Positions 1 through 46,997 of a DNA stretch of 64,000 nt are shown piece by piece; the stretch's first letter is position 1, and each line of letters opens with the position of its first letter. This DNA comes from Methanobacteriota archaeon. GTDB lineage: Archaea; Thermoplasmatota; Thermoplasmata; SG8-5; DAIRED01. The notes under the pieces were generated by a model. The model had not been told where the DNA came from and did not search any database. It saw nothing but the letters and a program-made list of their open reading frames with translations. The stretch spans positions 128,001-192,000 of the forward strand of contig JAZDNO010000006.1 of assembly GCA_043799545.1 (NCBI GenBank). The letters run 5' to 3'. Both the position numbers and the translations under genes were made by a program.

Positions 1-714
1 AAAACGGGCACTTCGAGACTGGACGACCTTCTGCTCGGAGGCATACCTTTCGGGACGAACGTCCTGGTCTACGGTCCGCCTTTCGCCGGAAAGGAGATTG
101 CCATCAACGCCTTCATCGCAGACGGCCTGAAGAAGGGCGTTCCGGCAATCTGGGTCATCACCGACAAGCTCCCCTCCGAGATACGCGAGGAGATGATGTT
201 CATAGTGTCAGGGTACGAGGAATACGAAAAGCTCGGCCTGGTCAAATACGTAGATGCGTATTCCAAGAGCATCGGCGAGGTCACGCCTGACCCCAATGTC
301 ACTTACATCGAAGAGGCCACGGACCACGTGGGCATCTTGAAGGCAGTGGACGCGGTGGCGAAGGAGCTGCTGCAGAAGCACAAGTACTACCGGGTGGGGT
401 TCAGGTCGATTTCCACCCTGATAGCGTACCTGGATTCGAACGCCGCATTCAAATTCCTACAGCCGTTCGTCGGCAGGCGCAAGCGCGAGCGCGCCGTATC
501 CCTCTTCTCCATCGAGAAGGGAATGCACAGCGACCAGGACATCCAGATGATCGGAAGCCAGATGGACGGGGCCATAGAATTCAAGATCGAGCAGCTGAAG
601 ACCTTCCTTTGCATCAAGGGAATCGGCGACGTGCAGTCGAAGGCGTGGATAGAATACACATACAGCAAGCAGGGCATGGCAGTTGGCTCATTCAGCTTGG
701 ACCATATACGTTAA
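1..714 (+). CDS. KaiC/RAD55 (RecA-superfamily) ATPase domain protein, 5'-truncated by the window
   Basis: Frame 1 is open from base 1: KTGTSRLDDLLLGGIPFGTNVLVYGPPFAGKE (KaiC-like N-terminal motif, variant Walker A). It continues into track ORF 193-714 (GMHS...MDGAIEFK). Confidence 0.85.
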   Translation, partial: KTGTSRLDDLLLGGIPFGTNVLVYGPPFAGKEIAINAFIADGLKKGVPAIWVITDKLPSEIREEMMFIVSGYEEYEKLGLVKYVDAYSKSIGEVTPDPNVTYIEEATDHVGILKAVDAVAKELLQKHKYYRVGFRSISTLIAYLDSNAAFKFLQPFVGRRKRERAVSLFSIEKGMHSDQDIQMIGSQMDGAIEFKIEQLKTFLCIKGIGDVQSKAWIEYTYSKQGMAVGSFSLDHIR

Positions 715-718
715 GCCA

Positions 719-871
719 TCATTTTTTCCGCTTCCAAAGGAATAACGGCAACGGAACGAATAGGAAGAAAAACAGCCAGCCAGTTAATATGAATACAGTT
801 ATCGAGGCTGCCATGGTTAGGATTAGAATCCCCATAAGAAACCAAGGCGAGAAAACCCAGTCCGCCTTCAT
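719..871 (-). CDS. 50-aa hydrophobic membrane microprotein (MKADWVFSPWFLMGILILTMAASITVFILTGWLFFFLFVPLPLFLWKRKK)
   Basis: ATG at 871 overlaps the TGA of the upstream gene (ATGA coupling). Two hydrophobic stretches and a basic KRKK tail. It is the C-terminal part of track ORF 719-1057. Confidence 0.6.
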   Translation of the reverse strand: MKADWVFSPWFLMGILILTMAASITVFILTGWLFFFLFVPLPLFLWKRKK

Positions 872-1290
872 GCGACTTCGATTCCGGATGAGGGCTTGGG
901 TCCCGGGCTCTTCCCGATGTTGACCTGCGGCATCGGAATCGGCGGGGGCATCTTCAGGTCCCTGGAGACCATGACCGCCTCTGGCACGCAGTTCATCATT
1001 ATCGCCTGGTGAACCTGCGTCGCCACGTCGTCCGGCATCTTGTGCTCGGTCTGCCACTGCTTGGCGACCGCGCTGGCATTGCCTTCGAAGACCATCTTGC
1101 CCTCGATTTTAATGAAGCCGATGCTCGAGTAGTTGGCTGTGAATCTGAACTCCACGTTGGCCTCCTTGTTATTGATTTCGGAGATGAGCGTTATACTGCT
1201 GTTGTGGTCTATCCTGATGTTGCCCATGGCCTCACCCAGCTTCGTGAAGCGCCGCGCGTCAATCGAGGTGAACTCGAAATTCGTTATCAT
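868..1290 (-). CDS. conserved hypothetical protein, possibly SecB-like fold
   Basis: 140-aa ORF with coding-like codon usage and a TATA-like TTATTAA about 30 nt upstream. The beta-rich N-half and helix/proline C-half (A..VHQAIMMNCVPEAVMVSRDLKMPPPIPMP) resemble SecB-like proteins (inference). Confidence 0.7.
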   Translation of the reverse strand: MITNFEFTSIDARRFTKLGEAMGNIRIDHNSSITLISEINNKEANVEFRFTANYSSIGFIKIEGKMVFEGNASAVAKQWQTEHKMPDDVATQVHQAIMMNCVPEAVMVSRDLKMPPPIPMPQVNIGKSPGPKPSSGIEVA

Positions 1291-1383
1291 GCACTATGCC
1301 AATGACCCGAGGTGGATTAATAACTTTCGCTTCTAATCGCTGCCGCCACAGCGCCATTATGTATGGTGCATCTCAAGGCCGTA

Positions 1384-1606
1384 CTTGAACTGCCGACCTT
1401 CGACGGAAGGTGTGATTGGCGGTCAGCTGTGTTCAAGCCCTATGTTCGAGCATCGAATACGCTCCGATGGTGGCAAATAAATCCGGACTTGAACCGCAGA
1501 ATCGCTTCGTTTAGCAATCAAGTTCGATGATTCTGCAAGTTCAAGTCCCCTGCGGCATGAATAGCTGAAAAAATAAAACCTAATGCCGCAGGCCGGACTT
1601 GAACCA
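1384..1606. repeat. fold-back array downstream of tRNA-Phe: five alternately oriented GTTCAAG/CTTGAAC motifs forming stacked inverted repeats
   Basis: CTTGAAC at 1384, GTTCAAG at 1431, CTTGAAC at 1488, GTTCAAG at 1539, CTTGAAC at 1598 (the tRNA T-loop). Hairpin GGACTTGAACCGCAGAATC (1485-1503) / GATTCTGCAAGTTCAAGTCC (1529-1548). IR CCTGCGGCAT (1549-1558) / ATGCCGCAGG (1583-1592). Confidence 0.85.
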
Positions 1607-3633
1607 GCGACAACTTGATCTTCAGTCAAGCACTCTCCCAGCTGAGTTACTGCGGCACCGTCTCCGGGAAGCCCGCCAGCGTTGCGCTCCTCTGTGGCGG
1701 AGGGGGTTGATTGGACTGCCCCTACATTAAGCTTGCCTTCCCCACCTCTGGTGACCTCGGTGATATTCTCAACAAAGCTCCAGTTCACGGCGTAGATTTC
1801 CGCCCACGTCCCGCGGGTTTCGTTCTCGAACGAGGCGGCCAATACGAACGGCTCCTCCCTCAGCATCGCGAGCGTCTCGTCCGAGACCGGGGGAAGGCTC
1901 ATGCCGGCCAGGGAGACCCCGCTGACGCGCATCACGTCGTCCACGAGCACGCAGCCCACGCGGGTCCCGTTCGTTCCGTTTAGTACGTCCATGCAGTCGC
2001 GCCATTGTGTGGCGTTCCAGATGGCGGCGCCTCCCTCGAACGTCGCCCGGAGTCCCATGGCCTCCAGCTGCGTTCCGAGCCTGTGGTCGGTTGCGACAGA
2101 ATATCCAGGGGTGGCGTTCTGGCCAAGCCAATCTAGCGCCGCCAGGTCTTCGTCGCTTATCCGTTCGTCGAAGCCAATCTCAGGCGCCAAACGGTAGCTT
2201 GCCAGAGCGCTCCCGACAAGCAATGCGACGACCAGGACGGGGACGACGGCGCGCGAACCGACCCTCCAACCCTTTTCATCGATCCAGACGCCCCTGCCCT
2301 CCCACTGTTGCCGTGTGTCCAAGGATGCTGGCCGCAGGTCCGAAATGAATGCCGCATCGCTTCCCCCGACCGTTCCTCCACTCTTGGGCAGGAAGGGGAT
2401 GAACCTTCTGGTGGTCTCCATGGAAAAGGCCCTCTCAATGCTTGGCGCAAGCAGGAAAGCCATCCCCATGGCCGCGAAGAGCGACAGTGGCTCCATCAGG
2501 TACTCGAGGTGCCTCTCCGGCAAAAGAATGTCGCTGCCGACTGCGAGCGCAACCGCCATAGAGAGTCCAACCGCCGCGAACCATCCTACGATTTCAGAAC
2601 CCCTTTCAAGCATGGCGGTCCTGCTCAACCCAACAGCGCCGAAGGCCAGGATGGCGAAGACAGGCACAGAATAGACCGCGAGCATGGGAGTGGCCCTCGA
2701 TGCTATGGCCGGGCTGTCGGCGATTACCAGCAATGCAATCGTGAAGGTAAGGGCTGAGAACGCGAGTATGAATTTCATTTTTTCATAGCCTCGCGACACG
2801 GGGTCGGAAAGCCAATCCAAGACCGACCTGAACCGTCTCCTGAGAACCAGCAAAGCCGCGGCGAACACCGCATATGCCAGAACGATTGCCGGCCAGGGGA
2901 GCCTGGTTCCTGTTTTCACGAAGGAGAGCACCTCGGTCGCGACGAGCCCCCAGTAAGCGAACGCGAGACATGCGGCGAACGCGATGTATGCTAGCTGGGC
3001 CTTCGAGGGGGCTCGGCGCTGAAGCGCAACCATAGCCGGAAGGGACGCCAGATACAGGTAGGTTGTGAAGTGGTGGGAGCCCACCAGCAGAGCCGTCGAA
3101 GCGATGAGGAGCGCCCAGTCCGCCCTGCCCATCGAGGGCTTGGTCAGCAGGAACATGCATGCCAGGAAGAAGAAATGGCCCATCGTCAAAGGAGCCGCGT
3201 GGCTCGTCTGGTAGACGTGGACGGAATTGACAGCCAAGAGAGCCATGGCGAGAAGCGCGGTTCGGCGCCCCATTCCCGCATTCCTGGCTATGAAGTACAC
3301 GAAGGCCACGGATAGCCCGCCGAACACAGGCGCGACCTTCGTCATCAGCCAGAACGCGTCCGAACCCGTGAGCAGGTGCGGTAATGCCGTAACCAAATAG
3401 AGCACCGGAAAATGCTCGTACGATTGCCCCCATCCGATATATGGCGGGAACAGCGCCCCGTTGTTTATGACCGAAGATGTGAGACCGTAATAAATTCCCA
3501 TATCGCTTCCCCATCCAGAATATATCCAGGCTGGAACTGAGCGAAGGGCGATTGCGAGGGCGCAGAGCCCGATGAAAGCGAGGGCGTGCGGATTTCGCAG
3601 ATGCCGCCCGAGAAGCGCCCCCGTTCGAGACAT
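1423..3633 (-). CDS. polytopic membrane protein, probable GT-C-fold glycosyltransferase (PMT/ArnT-like)
   Basis: Likely ATG at 3633 (MSRTGALL). More than 10 TM segments, an acidic first loop (GSDMGIYY...YEHFP) and a soluble C-terminal domain. The frame stays open through tRNA-Phe to 1423, so the true C-terminus is uncertain. Confidence 0.6.
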   Translation of the reverse strand: MSRTGALLGRHLRNPHALAFIGLCALAIALRSVPAWIYSGWGSDMGIYYGLTSSVINNGALFPPYIGWGQSYEHFPVLYLVTALPHLLTGSDAFWLMTKVAPVFGGLSVAFVYFIARNAGMGRRTALLAMALLAVNSVHVYQTSHAAPLTMGHFFFLACMFLLTKPSMGRADWALLIASTALLVGSHHFTTYLYLASLPAMVALQRRAPSKAQLAYIAFAACLAFAYWGLVATEVLSFVKTGTRLPWPAIVLAYAVFAAALLVLRRRFRSVLDWLSDPVSRGYEKMKFILAFSALTFTIALLVIADSPAIASRATPMLAVYSVPVFAILAFGAVGLSRTAMLERGSEIVGWFAAVGLSMAVALAVGSDILLPERHLEYLMEPLSLFAAMGMAFLLAPSIERAFSMETTRRFIPFLPKSGGTVGGSDAAFISDLRPASLDTRQQWEGRGVWIDEKGWRVGSRAVVPVLVVALLVGSALASYRLAPEIGFDERISDEDLAALDWLGQNATPGYSVATDHRLGTQLEAMGLRATFEGGAAIWNATQWRDCMDVLNGTNGTRVGCVLVDDVMRVSGVSLAGMSLPPVSDETLAMLREEPFVLAASFENETRGTWAEIYAVNWSFVENITEVTRGGEGKLNVGAVQSTPSATEERNAGGLPGDGAAVTQLGECLTEDQVVAGSSPACGIRFYFFSYSCRRGLELAESSNLIAKRSDSAVQVRIYLPPSERIRCSNIGLEHS
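1584..1656 (-). tRNA. tRNA-Phe (GAA), intronless, CCA not encoded
   Basis: Reverse complement GCCGCAGTAACTCAGCTGGGAGAGTGCTTGACTGAAGATCAAGTTGTCGCTGGTTCAAGTCCGGCCTGCGGCA folds as a cloverleaf with anticodon loop CTGAAGA. Confidence 0.97.
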
Positions 3634-3758
3634 CACGTTCCCCAAGTGCGAAGCCTCCTTCAAATTCGCAACAGGATTTAGTGGTTTTGTGAGGATATAA
3701 GCATATTTGTAAAGCGGTGCCGGGAAGCGCTGAAATGCATATCGTAACCAGCGACATC

Positions 3759-3770
3759 TATATATATATA
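3759..3770. promoter_or_regulatory. (TA)6 bidirectional TATA-box candidate between the divergent GT-C gene and the pilus operon
   Basis: TATATATATATA in an AT-rich intergenic region between divergent starts at 3633 and 3832. Confidence 0.55.
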
Positions 3771-3831
3771 ATAGGCTATAATTGGTAAAGCGCGAGCCTA
3801 GCCAAGGAAATAAGTTTTGGGGCTTGAGAAG

Positions 3832-4764
3832 ATGTATAGAGGAAGGCGAGGAGAGGGTGGGCGCATAAACCCCTCCCCGAGATGGGGGAGCGAGGGTGTA
3901 GCTTCCACCGTGGGAACGATAATGGCCCTGATGGTTTTCATGGCGATGCTCTCCGTCTTCACTAACCAGTACGTCCCGGTCTGGATGGAGGACAACGAAG
4001 CGAAGCATATGAACGTCGTCGAATCCCAGATGGGAATGCTCAAGCACGGGATTGACACGCAGATACTGGTGGGCCAGCTCGGTGGCGCCACGGACATCTC
4101 GGTGTACAGTCCCATTACACTGGGTTCGGAGGGCGTTCCGATGTTCGCAGCCCCGACTCAGGGTTATCTGGACGTGCTCCCGGACAGGGGGCGAAGCACG
4201 GTTAATTTCCAGTTCGACCCCAACCCCACGGACCCGACCAGCACACCGGTATCGATTACCTCCTCAAGCACCGGCAGCATAGCCATGGAAGCCCCGAACC
4301 GGTACTACGTTCCGCAGATACTCACATACGAGAACGATGCAATCATCCTCAAGCAGGGCGATGGGGTCATCATGAAGAGCGTTCCCCAGTTCAGTGTGAG
4401 GCAGGAGGGCAACAACTTCCGCGTCTCCTTCACGCAAGTCACTCTCTACGGTGTCAATAAATCGTACGTTGGAAGCGGGACGACCGGGGTGCACACATCC
4501 CTGAGGTACACGAATTCCAGCACGTACAACAACCTCACGACAGATGTCACGATAACGATAACGAGCACGTACGCAAACGCATGGAATGCCTATTTTAGCG
4601 ACTACTTGCCCAGAGCGGGTCTCCTTCCGGCGGAATACACGATAGTGCTCAATCCCCCGTTGGCGCCCACACAGCTTGTTCTCACGCTGCGTATGAACTC
4701 TTTCTCCAGCGTCACGGTGAACCAGGCGTATTTCGAAATCCTCATGGGGGAGGTGGGCGAGTAA
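3832..4764 (+). CDS. archaeal type IV pilin-like protein (minor pilin)
   Basis: Class III signal-like SEG|VASTVGTIMALMVFMAMLSVF followed by YVP.W..DNE..HM..V..Q. First gene of the ATPase/TadC operon; its TAA overlaps the next ATG. Confidence 0.8.
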   Translation: MYRGRRGEGGRINPSPRWGSEGVASTVGTIMALMVFMAMLSVFTNQYVPVWMEDNEAKHMNVVESQMGMLKHGIDTQILVGQLGGATDISVYSPITLGSEGVPMFAAPTQGYLDVLPDRGRSTVNFQFDPNPTDPTSTPVSITSSSTGSIAMEAPNRYYVPQILTYENDAIILKQGDGVIMKSVPQFSVRQEGNNFRVSFTQVTLYGVNKSYVGSGTTGVHTSLRYTNSSTYNNLTTDVTITITSTYANAWNAYFSDYLPRAGLLPAEYTIVLNPPLAPTQLVLTLRMNSFSSVTVNQAYFEILMGEVGE

Positions 4765-34555: not shown

Positions 34556-34669
34556 TGGTTCAAGCCCGGTCTGCGGCATGAAATAATTTGTCACAGCTAT
34601 CTATGGTGCAGGAGACTTGAACTTGCAGAACTTGTGATGGACGAAGGGCGAATCTTTCTGCGGTTCAAG
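34556..34669 (+). repeat. orphan diverged inverted copy of the tRNA-Phe 3' end plus fold-back array
   Basis: TGGTTCAAGCCCGGTCTGCGGCAT..CAGCTAT..GCAGGAGACTTGAACTTGCAGAA..TTCTGCGGTTCAAG aligns to the reverse complement of 1488-1606. Confidence 0.85.
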
Positions 34670-35378
34670 CGTTGGAATCGAAGATTGGTCCGAGGACCAC
34701 CATGCCTCCTTTCCCTATCTCCACCGCGTGGCGCTCCATGCTGTGCTGGCAGGCGCGCATCTTCTCGACCTGGAGGTACCTGGTGAGCTTCCCGCGCGTC
34801 CTGTCCAGGCCCAGGAGCATGATGCCGTCGACGAGGAAACCCTCGTTGCCAAGCAGCTGCGACTCGCCGCCGGGCGAGCGCTCCATGACGATGAAGCAGA
34901 CGAGGTTGTGGTCCCGCAGCATCTTGAAGAAGTAGAACATCCTCTTGCGCATGTTCGTGGCGTCCTCCATCAGGGAGTAGAGCGCGCCGAGCGAATCCAG
35001 CGTGAAAATGGTGAATCGGTCGCCGTGCTTCTTCTTGAAATGGACTATCATCTTCTCCAGGAAGGCCAGGTAATCGGTCTGCTCAACGGCGTCGGCCATC
35101 CGGTCAATCTCGCGCAGGTCCGTGAGATCGGAAATCTGCATGTTCTTCGTCAGGTGGATGCCGAGGCTCTCCATGTTGCGGACGTGGGAGTCGACCGTTT
35201 CCTCCATCGTGCAATAGAGGCCGAATTCGTTCGTCTTCTCCAGGTATTTGGACATCAGGGTGTAGCAGAAGCTGGTCTTCATCGAGCCCGGCGGACCGGT
35301 CACTAGAACGATTGACGGCGCCTTTATGTCGGTCCTGAAGACTTTGTCCAGTCCTTCGAGAGAGTCGCGGAACACCAT
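34665..35378 (-). CDS. KaiC/RAD55-family ATPase (single domain)
   Basis: Start MVFRDSLEGLDKVF at 35378 (the longer track ORF runs antisense through tRNA-Cys). Walker A variant GPPGSMKT, Walker B FTLDS, FLVDG, VEKMR. Confidence 0.88.
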   Translation of the reverse strand: MVFRDSLEGLDKVFRTDIKAPSIVLVTGPPGSMKTSFCYTLMSKYLEKTNEFGLYCTMEETVDSHVRNMESLGIHLTKNMQISDLTDLREIDRMADAVEQTDYLAFLEKMIVHFKKKHGDRFTIFTLDSLGALYSLMEDATNMRKRMFYFFKMLRDHNLVCFIVMERSPGGESQLLGNEGFLVDGIMLLGLDRTRGKLTRYLQVEKMRACQHSMERHAVEIGKGGMVVLGPIFDSNA

Positions 35379-35585: not shown

Positions 35586-35656
35586 GCCGAGGTGACAGAG
35601 TGGCCATGTGGCAGACTGCAGATCTGTACACGGGCGTTCAAATCGCCCCCTCGGCC
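35586..35656 (+). tRNA. tRNA-Cys (GCA)
   Basis: GCCGAGG-TG-ACAGAGTGGCCATGT-G-GCAGACTGCAGATCTGT-ACAC-GGGCGTTCAAATCGCCC-CCTCGGC-C folds as a cloverleaf with anticodon loop CTGCAGA. Confidence 0.93.
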
Positions 35657-36010
35657 TTATCATTTTATTGCATCCATGCGGCCGAGGGGAAATTAAAACT
35701 TAGCTGACATGAAGATGCAATTCGTTTTAGTTTTTCCCTCAGAAAGATGCAGTTCGGCACATGATATTTCTTCGGTCGCCCCCTCGGCCTTATCATTTTA
35801 TTGCATCCATGCGGCCGAGGGGAGACTAAATCTAAGATAACACTCTGATTTCATTCGATTTAGTCTTTCCCTCGGCAAGAAATCCTAAATGGCTTCCTTG
35901 CCTCGGTCGCCCCCTCCTATGCCAGAGCATCCATCAGCAGGTTATCTCGGAATTGTGTTGGGAAATGGTTTCCTTGCCTCGGTCGCCCCCCTCCTATGCC
36001 AGAGCATCCA
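35643..36010 (+). repeat. tRNA-Cys 3'-end-derived tandem/fold-back array
   Basis: Identical 48-mers at 35643-35690 and 35776-35823. Near-identical 47/48-mers at 35887-35933 and 35963-36010. TCGCCCCC(C)TC occurs four times. Internal inverted repeats have 23-24 nt loops. Confidence 0.9.
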
Positions 36011-45011: not shown

Positions 45012-46997
45012 TTACTTCTGCCGTCCCGTCACGAGCGAGTCGACGACGCCCGGGTCCGCCAGCGTCGTGGTGTCTCCCAGGTCGACCTTGTCCGTCTGGC
45101 CGACTGCAATCTTCTTCAGAATGCGGCGCATGATTTTGCCGCTGCGGGTCTTGGGCAGGCCGTCCGCGAACTGGAGCTTCTCCGGCACCGCTATCGGTCC
45201 CATAGTCTTGCGCACGTGCAGGTTGAGCTCCTTCTTCAGCTCGTCGTTCTTCTCGACGCCGACCTTCAGGGTGACGTAGGCGTAGATGGCCTCGCCCTTG
45301 ATGTCGTGCGGCATCGGGACGACCGCGGCCTCGGCGACCTTCGGGTGGGAGACCAGCGCGCTCTCGACCTCGGCCGTTCCAATCCTGTGGCCCGAGACCT
45401 TGATGACGTCGTCGATGCGGCCCATTATCCAGAAGTAGCCGTCCTCGTCGCGCCTCGCGGAGTCGCCCGCGAGGTAGATGTGCTTGAACTTCGACCAGTA
45501 CGTTTCGCGGAACCTGTCCGGCTGTCCGTAGACGCCCCTCATCAGGCCGGGCCATGGCTTCATTATGCAGAGGTAGCCGCCCTCGTTCGGGTTCGCCTCG
45601 GTCCCGTCCTCGCGGATGATTTTAGCCTCGATTCCGGGGAAAGGCAGGGTGCAGGAGCCTGGCTTCGTGGCGATTGCGCCCGGAAGCGGCGTGATGCATA
45701 TTCCGCCTGTCTCGGTCTGCCACCACGTGTCCACAATCGGGCACTTCTCGTGGCCGATGTTCTTGTGGTACCACATCCACGCCTCGGGGTTGATGGGCTC
45801 TCCGACGGTTCCCAGAAGCCTGAGCGAGCTGAGGTCGTGCTTGGCGGGCCACTGCTCCCCCTCGCGCATGAGGGCGCGGATGGCCGTCGGCGCGGTGTAG
45901 ATGATGTTGCACTTGAACTTCTCGACGATGTGCCAGAAGCGGTCCGCGGCCGGGTAGGTCGGGACTCCCTCGAACATCACGGTGGTCGCTCCGGCGCTGA
46001 GCGGCCCGTACACGATGTACGAGTGGCCGGTGACCCAGCCAATGTCCGCCGTGCACCAGTAGGTGTCCTCTTCCTTGTTGTCGAAGATCCACTTGAACGT
46101 CGTGGTCACATAGAGCATGTAGCCTGCGGTGGTGTGCATGACGCCCTTCGGCTTTCCGGTGGAGCCGGATGTGTAGAGGAGGTAGAGCGGGTCCTCCGCG
46201 TCCATCTGCTCGCACTCGCACACAGTCGAGGCCTTGTCCATCTCCTCGTGGTACCACACGTCGCGTCCGGCCTTCATCTCGACCGGTATGGTCCCGAGGC
46301 GCTTGACTACGACGACCTTCTTTATCGACGGGCACTGGTCGGCCGCGGCGTCGGCGTTCTGCTTTCCGTTGATGGTCTTGCCGGAGCGGTAGTAACCGTC
46401 GGCGGTGATGAGGATGTTGCACTCGCTGTCCTGGATGCGGTCCCTGAGCGAGTCCGCGCTGAACCCGCCGAACACGATGGAGTGCATGGCGCCGATGTGG
46501 GCGCAGGCCAGCATTGCGATTGGCAGCTCCGGAATCATGGGCATGTAAATCGAGATGCGGTCGCCCTTCTTCGCGCCGAGGTTCTTCAGCACGTTGGCGA
46601 ACTTGCTGACCTCGTAGTGGAGCTGCTGGTACGTCAGGGTGCGGACCTCGTTCTCGGGCTCGCCCTGCCATATGATTGCCGCCTTGTTCTTCCTGTGTGT
46701 CTTGAGGTGCCTGTCGACGCAGTTGTAGGAGGCGTTGAGCTTGCCGCCCTTGAACCACGTGAACTTGGCGTTGTCCTTGTCGTGCCAGTCGAAGACCTTG
46801 TCCCACTTCTTCGAGAACCATTCCAACTCGTCCGAATGTTTCTCCCAGAATTTCACCGGGTCCTTTATGGACTCGGCGTAGATCTTCTTGTATTCCTTCA
46901 TGTCCTTAATGTGGGCCGCCTTGGAAAACTCCTTGGTCGGCTCGAACTTGCGCTTCTCGTCCATCATCGATGTGATGCCCTTTTCGTCTGTTGCCAT
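45012..46997 (-). CDS. acs: AMP-forming acetyl-CoA synthetase
   Basis: [56 protein letters not shown]. Confidence 0.97.

Follow-up and report, generated by a model that had tools for sequence, protein, structure and literature searches.

How did the 3' end of a tRNA come to be copied several times, in strictly alternating orientation, into the DNA behind its own gene? The question is raised by a tRNA-Phe locus in the window, the 64,000-nt stretch C10:128001-192000 of the genome of an uncultured member of the Thermoplasmatota (G000; 2.06 Mb, 31 contigs, 94% complete), with Pfam families that are archaeal. The original prediction had described five copies of the T-arm motif GTTCAAG on alternating strands, 47-59 nt apart, and this is confirmed: they lie at 1384(-), 1431(+), 1488(-), 1539(+) and 1598(-), which gives intervals of 47, 57, 51 and 59 nt. 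In the window as a whole, GTTCAAG occurs 22 times, versus 6.4 +/- 2.8 in shuffled sequences, and 8 of these 22 belong to the tRNA-Phe array and its copy at 34.5 kb. The answer developed here, to which we assign a rough probability of 0.55, is that two small hairpin cassettes, duplicative and without genes, are stacked here at the 3' end of tRNA-Phe, as one case of an order-wide system at most stable-RNA gene ends. An origin by duplication or recombination linked to the tRNA 3' end, as had been suggested at the outset, is supported by the comparisons described below.

Structure of the tRNA-Phe array

The gene for tRNA-Phe(GAA), which encodes no CCA, lies at 1584..1656 on the minus strand (Rfam RF00005, 65.4 bits; ARAGORN), and the features of the array lie on the same strand. 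It was the sole match in an Rfam search of positions 1-4000, the remaining hits having E > 0.7, and a tRNA pseudogene or an Rfam family was rejected on this basis. The 3' segment of the gene (T1, 1583..1606(-); repeat families D1 and I4/I5), hereafter the tail, comprises the T-stem, the T-loop, the 3' strand of the acceptor and one trailing T, and is the template sequence of the copies found in the Phe cassettes. It is followed by a 24-nt spacer (s1, 1559..1582(-)), whose sequence holds a T-run and the family motif CAGCTAT and which forms the loop of hairpin 1; the T-run is probably the terminator of tRNA-Phe, and CAGCTAT recurs in the copy at 34.5 kb and in beta units at tRNA-Thr. Then comes X1 (1539..1558(-); inverted repeats I4 and I5), which repeats the tRNA 3' end in inverted orientation, reads ATGCCGCAGG-GGACTTGAAC on the tRNA strand and misses 2 nt. 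Behind X1, folding delimits beta core 1 (1496..1538(-)), an 8-bp inner stem (GCAGAATC / GATTCTGC) with a 25-nt loop, whose homologues in the genomes G001 and G002, in the metagenomic relative L185, on contig C2 and at tRNA-Thr loci include compensatory changes. The first cassette closes with T3 (1483..1495(-); family D1), a 13-nt direct match to the T-arm part of the tail (GGTTCAAGTCCGG) that lacks the acceptor part. The second consists of a spacer with a T-run at its start (s2, 1441..1482(-), family D5; ATTTATTT), a second inverted copy of the T-loop part only (X2, 1431..1440(-), I6/I7; GGGCTTGAAC on the tRNA strand), a beta core 2 that is degenerate in G000 (1398..1430(-), z = -2.1), and T5 (1367..1397(-)), a third direct tail copy, almost full-length and decayed, which is the D1 reference copy and shares 82% identity with the tRNA segment.

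The order on the tRNA strand is thus T1, s1, X1, beta core 1, T3, s2, X2, degenerate core 2 and T5, that is, two stacked cassettes of the beta family at 1367-1582. Each follows one plan, in which a spacer of about 24 nt with a T-run leads to an inverted copy (X), an inner hairpin with a loop of 24-25 nt, and a direct copy of the tail (T'). The strict alternation of strands arises because every cassette adds one inverted and one direct copy; it is not zig-zag copying of a single motif, as the alternation had first been read, since the inverted and the direct copy flank an unrelated inner hairpin. No ORFs were found within the cassette units.

Folded as DNA, hairpin 1 has arms at 1539-1558 and 1583-1604, a 24-nt loop and a 2-nt bulge (-22.4 kcal/mol, z = -8.9), and hairpin 2 has arms at 1485-1503 and 1529-1548, a 25-nt loop and one unpaired C (-18.4 kcal/mol, z = -6.2). 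Both agree with the loop lengths and the single unpaired base of the original description, as does the third stem (1376-1445), described there as degenerate, which reaches only z = -2.1 and is equalled in 5 of 200 shuffles. The entire array folded as RNA gives z = -5.9. An intrinsic terminator was rejected, because the T-run is part of the hairpin 1 loop and does not directly follow the hairpin.

Directly downstream of the Phe array, a conserved ORF of 140 aa (window 868-1290(-)) is found in G000, G001 and L185; it belongs to no Pfam family, and its closest Atlas clusters are hypothetical proteins of Thermoplasmatota. In L185, its homologue is followed downstream by a tandem repeat of about 110 nt (L185:4060-4460; motif CCTGATGTGGTCGAGCGAGA...).

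Distribution among tRNA genes

The flanks of all 40 tRNAs called by ARAGORN were scanned, and 36 of them entered a controlled count, four dubious calls being set aside. The controlled test considered the 16-nt acceptor-specific tail only, with 1260 mismatched tRNA/flank pairs as the control. An inverted copy of at least 10 nt of a tRNA's own tail was present within 70 nt at 11 of the 36 tRNAs, versus 0.24% of the mismatched pairs, and a direct copy of at least 10 nt at 15 of the 36, versus 0.4%. Counting inverted and/or direct copies, 25 of the 36 tRNA genes carry a copy of their own tail downstream, compared with less than 0.5% of the mismatched pairs. The scan of other tRNA flanks was thus positive at most tRNAs, and in relatives as well, and the anchoring to tRNA-Phe alone that had been assumed does not hold.

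At most tRNAs, a T-run of 16-36 nt is followed by X, often with a direct copy 66-135 nt downstream, and other tRNAs have exact direct copies, 13-22 nt long, which extend to the 3' end. About one third of the tRNAs have no modules. Some ten tRNAs bear mirrored modules at their 5' ends too, with the same grammar on the other strand; tRNA-Phe has no 5' module. The beta core is common to the cassettes at three tRNA-Thr genes, to a copy on contig C2 and to tRNA-Phe of G001 and G002, and other tRNAs bear different core families ("alpha" types). One and the same core family can stand at several tRNAs, where X and T' are particular to each tRNA.

In a class-wide scan, the alpha loop motif was confined to this genus, the remaining hits being background; sequence motifs therefore cannot map the range of the phenomenon, which was seen at tRNA-Phe in three families of the order (G012, G008 and G014). 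In the two class-level outgroups examined, tRNA-Phe has no module. Two broader searches gave little: a regex scan for GGAC...GTCC hairpins was discarded because its 821 hits were mainly noise in a GC-rich genome, and a scan of genome contigs for the tail/mirror pattern yielded chance hairpins in high-GC bacteria only and was uninformative.

Two further loci deserve mention. In the tRNA-Thr(cgt) array (L162, G000:C6:45560-45980), a Phe-like spacer and X fragment (TTTTTAGCT...CATGCCGCAGG) is fused to a Thr acceptor fragment at about 45770-45800; by its sequence it may be a fossil of exchange between Phe and Thr arrays, with chance also possible, as the 11-mer occurs five times in the genome. At G000:C20:16560-17010, a GC-rich region resembling a structured RNA, which may be a putative RNase P or SRP RNA gene, is followed by a spacer, CCGCTGAA and an alpha core, where CCGCTGAA mirrors TTCAGCGG 26 nt upstream.

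Gain, loss and rearrangement of cassettes

One such comparison is offered by an orphan cassette at 34557..34661(+), a 105-nt insertion in opposite orientation to the tRNA that consists of a 23-nt Phe tail copy, spacer, X and beta core and shares 79% identity over 76 nt with 1531-1606. It is flanked by the 9-nt repeat GGTTCAAGC, the second copy of which lies at 34662-34670. The orphan is present in the metagenome contig L187 and absent at the orthologous site of G001, a genome of the same genus, where a single GGTTCAAGC is found. While the empty site has this one copy, the filled site reads GGTTCAAGC, the remainder of the Phe tail, spacer, X, beta core and GGTTCAAGC again, so that the two differ by exactly one unit. 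This comparison indicates that a whole unit, its own tail copy included, was joined to a site outside tRNA genes with which it has no more than a 9-nt T-loop box in common. As in an att duplication, the orphan carries the 23-nt Phe tail, and a direct repeat of the tail flanks the inserted DNA; the integrase gene that would go with integrase-mediated att duplication is missing in and beside the units.

The orphan lies 33 kb from tRNA-Phe, and together with the Phe array it brackets a pilus/adhesin locus. We considered whether the two Phe-tail copies allow this 33-kb pilus segment to invert and rejected the idea, given that an inversion would merely swap which copy holds the tRNA body, and insertion is simpler.

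The Phe array itself differs between relatives, which have one to five Phe cassettes in differing orders. Between tRNA-Phe and the beta unit, G001 has an extra 82-nt alpha-type unit with a 14-nt tail repeat at its borders, and the same layout is found in two metagenome contigs. In L185 the order is tRNA, beta1, a well-paired beta2, alpha, beta1', beta2' and then the same downstream gene as in G000, and about 88 nt (spacer, X and core) are re-duplicated nearly identically. Strictly polar growth away from the tRNA, as originally proposed, fails on these layouts, since the extra unit is tRNA-proximal in G001 and distal in L185, where the re-duplicated 88 nt are those of the proximal unit. The decay with distance that had suggested such growth stands for G000, where the third hairpin is weak, and not as a rule: both copies of core 2 in L185 (3069-3109 and 3345-3397) are better paired than beta core 2 in G000, and with the distal unit intact in this metagenomic relative, the gradient is a feature of the present lineage. 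Growth is not strictly polar, and any tail copy can act as a junction.

Other tRNAs behave similarly. Length differences between G000 and G001 of 81 nt at tRNA-Gly(tcc), 110 nt at tRNA-Thr(cgt) and 133 nt at tRNA-Cys are bounded by tail repeats, and tRNA-Ile shows a tandem duplication of a whole unit. The array at 35657-36010 behind tRNA-Cys (35586-35656) follows the same grammar from its own tail, and in G000 a 48-nt block of tail, spacer and X is exactly duplicated there around the 133-nt unit missing from G001. For tRNA-Thr(ggt), G000 and G001 have orthologous tails, spacers and X copies, and the core after X comes from different families, thus the cores are exchangeable at the foot of hairpin 1. 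Taken together, cassettes are shown to be gained, lost, duplicated and reordered between close relatives, and without an outgroup a gain looks the same as a loss, because deletion between tail repeats would restore the empty site.

Could such changes arise without any dedicated element, by template switching or microhomology copying at heavily transcribed, palindromic tRNA genes, followed by unequal crossing-over? Two switches at the 9-nt GGTTCAAG(C) microhomology would yield the orphan insertion, direct-inverted-direct layouts and re-duplications of whole blocks do occur (48 nt at tRNA-Cys, 88 nt in L185), and the failure to find an enzyme would be expected. We nevertheless hold this origin to be unlikely: many unrelated loci bear inner hairpins of the same conserved families, with conserved motifs in their loops, the lengths of spacer and loop are fixed, and three families of the order show the phenomenon, which is missing at tRNA-Phe in those class-level outgroups that were examined.

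Pairing between X and the tail

The inverted copy follows its tRNA in evolution. Lineages with a different Phe acceptor stem have a matching X, as in G012, where the tail ends in ...GGCCAACCGCAC and X reads GTGCGGTTGGCC at +24, and likewise in G008 and G014. Five tail substitutions between G000 and G001 fall within the part that X covers in both genomes, and each has its compensating change in X (5/5; Ile, Thr-ggt and Leu-taa), and X matches each tRNA substitution examined. The stems of the cores are preserved as well: among 11 members of the beta family, 73.6% of cells are paired versus 65.1% in shuffles, double changes occur at eight pairs, and the covariation score of 0.241, compared with 0.097 in shuffles, was matched by none of 500, so that two stems are preserved despite changes on both sides.

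The same pairing is found once behind a protein-coding gene. In the C2 copy (L171, G000:C2:48200-49600), a beta-core hairpin (C2:48858-48903) follows such a gene, and X pairs with the final codons of that gene, 23 nt upstream; where G001 has two synonymous codon changes, its X has two changes to match, i.e. two compensatory double changes. In the orphan, on the other hand, the tail copy and X drift apart. X-tail pairing therefore seems to be kept up where X has the end of a live gene as its partner, and the kept pairing at C2 together with the decayed pairing in the orphan points to a function at the level of the host or the transcript, which counts against reading the cassettes as mobile.

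The main rival of that reading, although compatible with it, is accordingly a structural module selected by the host, with mobility secondary, which might act in 3'-end formation, processing or protection, in insulation of convergent genes, or in the form of a small RNA that is co-transcribed and then cut by tRNA-processing enzymes; excision by such enzymes has been proposed for the tRNA-linked repeats (TLRs) of E. coli. We regard it as a real though lesser possibility. It is favoured by the compensatory changes at live gene ends, by the loss of pairing in the orphan, whose "tail" belongs to no gene, by the T-run that always stands in the spacer and the constant spacing of about 23-24 nt, and by what may be a resemblance of X plus T' to a stacked acceptor/T-stem helix; its best argument is the pairing kept at the fixed C2 copy, where the changes in the partner are synonymous. 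However, X on a read-through transcript would compete with the tRNA's own fold, the position of the T-run in the hairpin loop does not fit an intrinsic terminator, no Rfam family matches, one third or so of the tRNAs do without modules, and orthologous tRNAs within one genus have different core families. Folding energy is also without strand asymmetry. Sense and antisense MFE and G·U counts across 70 tRNA trailers revealed no bias (Wilcoxon p = 0.70), and for this reason the folding-energy test does not separate an RNA from a DNA role.

Search for an enzyme and a parent element

Four tyrosine recombinases (PF00589) are encoded in the genome (C10:213132, C10:219117, C12 and C25), three of which adjoin tRNAs; no integrase was found in the window or within 80 kb of the Phe array, and the tRNAs with a neighbouring integrase have no cassettes. 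These genes bear on the possibility that the arrays are decayed att scars of ordinary integrase-encoding viruses or plasmids that once resided in tRNA-Phe. Such events classically leave direct repeats of a tRNA 3' end, and recombinases beside tRNAs are at hand. Yet the units keep to one architecture and a length of 80-130 nt at more than 20 tRNAs, inverted copies at fixed spacing are foreign to att scars, the cassettes resemble nothing in phages, plasmids or IMG/VR, and no full-length element with these cores at its ends was found; together with the bare flanks of integrase-adjacent tRNAs, this makes att scars the least probable of the explanations considered, and a very improbable one.

Other enzymes gave similar results. 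No Cas1 (PF01867) was hit in the 94%-complete genome, and a CRISPR or casposon origin was rejected for this reason and because the copies alternate in orientation. A retroelement-derived copy was rejected likewise, with no reverse transcriptase (PF00078) hit in the genome and no CCA in the tail copies. A MITE was rejected as well, since the inverted arms are local copies of the target, different at every tRNA, and the repeats vary from 6 to 48 nt with no fixed target duplication.

The genome contains three Y1_Tnp genes, one of which, of the IS200/IS605 type (G000:C25:29894-30582), ends about 130 nt upstream of an ARAGORN-called tRNA-Leu(gag), and a partial copy of the 5' half of this tRNA lies between the two. 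Near Y1 loci, tRNA-Ile and tRNA-Glu, there is also a repeat family of about 290 nt (C25:31237-32958, C15:1-1584 and C28:6337-10841), which is unrelated to the cassettes. When the Y1 flanks were compared with the tRNA trailers by BLAST, only two short matches were obtained, both to the distal trailer of tRNA-Glu(ctc), and the hairpins beside two of the three Y1 genes are short with small loops and, by eye, unlike the cassette cores.

The left end of IS608 consists of a cleavage site, a linker, a 4-nt guide and a hairpin, and has been retargeted by engineered pairing of 12-17 nt (PMC5934647). IS608 is like the cassettes in that its target is recognised by pairing with a segment at the foot of a hairpin (PMC5934647). 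The IS200/IS605 elements, PATEs and REP/REPIN sequences with their RAYTs also share with the cassettes the form of small, non-coding, intergenic hairpin units, and REPs alternate in orientation (BIMEs); they differ in having element-specific arms, 4-nt guides and no target repeats, whereas the arms of the cassettes are derived from the target. One can thus conceive of single-strand, guide-directed transposition of the IS200/IS605 (PATE/REP-like) kind, in which X would be the guide at the 5' foot of the hairpin, pair with the tail about 20 nt upstream and direct a Y1 HUH transposase to cut after the tail. The order tail, linker, complementary segment, hairpin is that of the IS608 left end, Y1 genes are available, one of them 130 nt from a tRNA, and the 5' modules follow the same grammar on the other strand. 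Against this stand the differing hairpins at the two Y1 genes read, the guide rewriting that one core family with a different X at each tRNA would need, and the orphan, which was joined at a 9-nt identity including the T-loop and not after the tail. Moreover, we know of no natural guides of 8-20 nt in IS200/IS605-type transposition. Guide-directed insertion is a concrete hypothesis, although an improbable one, with nothing that ties the cassettes to a Y1 enzyme.

Neither phage nor plasmid collections gave a match to the cassettes, and ten IMG/VR hits to a 17-mer were rejected as chance, the hairpin being missing. A circular or tandem junction (core plus full tail pattern) was not found in metagenomes, nor was an autonomous parent element, and full-text searches of the literature gave no description of such modules in archaea. 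The cassettes appear to match no described element family.

Comparison with known systems

A close parallel is found in bacteria. The TLRs of E. coli (units of tyrT/tyrV, and rrA/rrB/rrF behind 5S rRNA) each finish with a repeat of the upstream RNA's 3' terminus, and one to five tandem units stand right behind tRNA or rRNA genes, their origin being unexplained (PMC8144298). Compared by layout, the Phe units are similar, lying directly downstream of the tRNA with two in G000 and one to five in relatives. The TLR copies, however, are of 18-19 bp and direct only, while the cassettes add a second copy in inverted orientation, with a constant distance of about 24 nt, and an inner hairpin of a shared family; cassettes also occur at 5' ends and, in one case, downstream of a protein gene, and their host is archaeal.

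The attL/attR sites of tRNA-targeting integrases are likewise similar in several respects, namely a replacement tRNA 3' end that is carried along, flanking direct repeats, tandem accretion and, in the orphan, a junction in the T-loop box. From these sites and from gene-less, cis-mobilisable remnants of such elements, the cassettes differ in their size of about 100 nt, in having no integrase or known parent, in the mirror copy of the att sequence, and in repeats of 6 to 48 nt. Integron attC sites and the att site of CTX phage are imperfect palindromes that fold in single-stranded DNA into a recombination site with bulges, and arrays of short units grow at one site; in contrast to attC, the cassettes have no IntI-like gene linked to them and lack the GTTRRRY box, and their palindrome is made from the end of the neighbouring gene.

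Proposed origin of the cassettes

The best-supported reading is that the cassettes are mobile or duplicative, miniature, non-autonomous units. A cassette would move as a unit of tail copy, spacer, X and core, putatively when its own tail copy recombines with a tail-like target within the T-loop/3'-end box. The incoming unit would supply a replacement tRNA 3' end and a terminator, as tRNA-targeting integrative elements do, and in this proposal the tRNA stays intact because both are brought in. The resulting tandem tail copies would then allow unequal recombination, through which units could be multiplied, deleted and shuffled. More speculatively, X and the tail copy may form a hairpin of about 20 bp, of which X would be one arm, that serves as the folded recognition site of a putative trans-acting recombinase.

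Several observations count against the cassettes being mobile. No enzyme is linked to them, with no integrase within 80 kb; the hairpins beside two of the three Y1 genes look different from the cores; neither an autonomous parent nor a circular junction was found; and repeat lengths of 6 to 48 nt are unusual for one recombinase. The 5' ends of tRNAs are a rare target of tRNA integrases, which makes the 5'-end cassettes at about ten tRNAs a further difficulty.

Taken furthest, the cassette would be a DNA element, mobile or self-maintaining, whose recognition hairpin consists of a gene end and its mirror copy, kept matched as the gene evolves, and whose landing pads are the ends of stable-RNA and occasionally protein genes across this order of Thermoplasmatota, with an insertion chemistry of its own, directed by structure or guide and unlike described transposon and integrase systems. 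We put this forward tentatively, as a reading that is less likely than not.

Implications

If the cassettes are mobile, they would be among the smallest site-specific elements known and the first with arms copied from the target, which bears on site recognition through folded DNA, internal guides and recombination in the T-loop. If they serve the host, they point to an unrecognised layer of archaeal tRNA 3'-end biology. On either reading, they are an archaeal counterpart of the tRNA-linked repeats of E. coli, which have stood unexplained since 1978, and the natural set of filled and empty sites is a test bed for mechanisms. For annotation, the cassettes account for many "att-like" repeats of tRNA fragments in Thermoplasmatota MAGs, which are not the borders of prophages.
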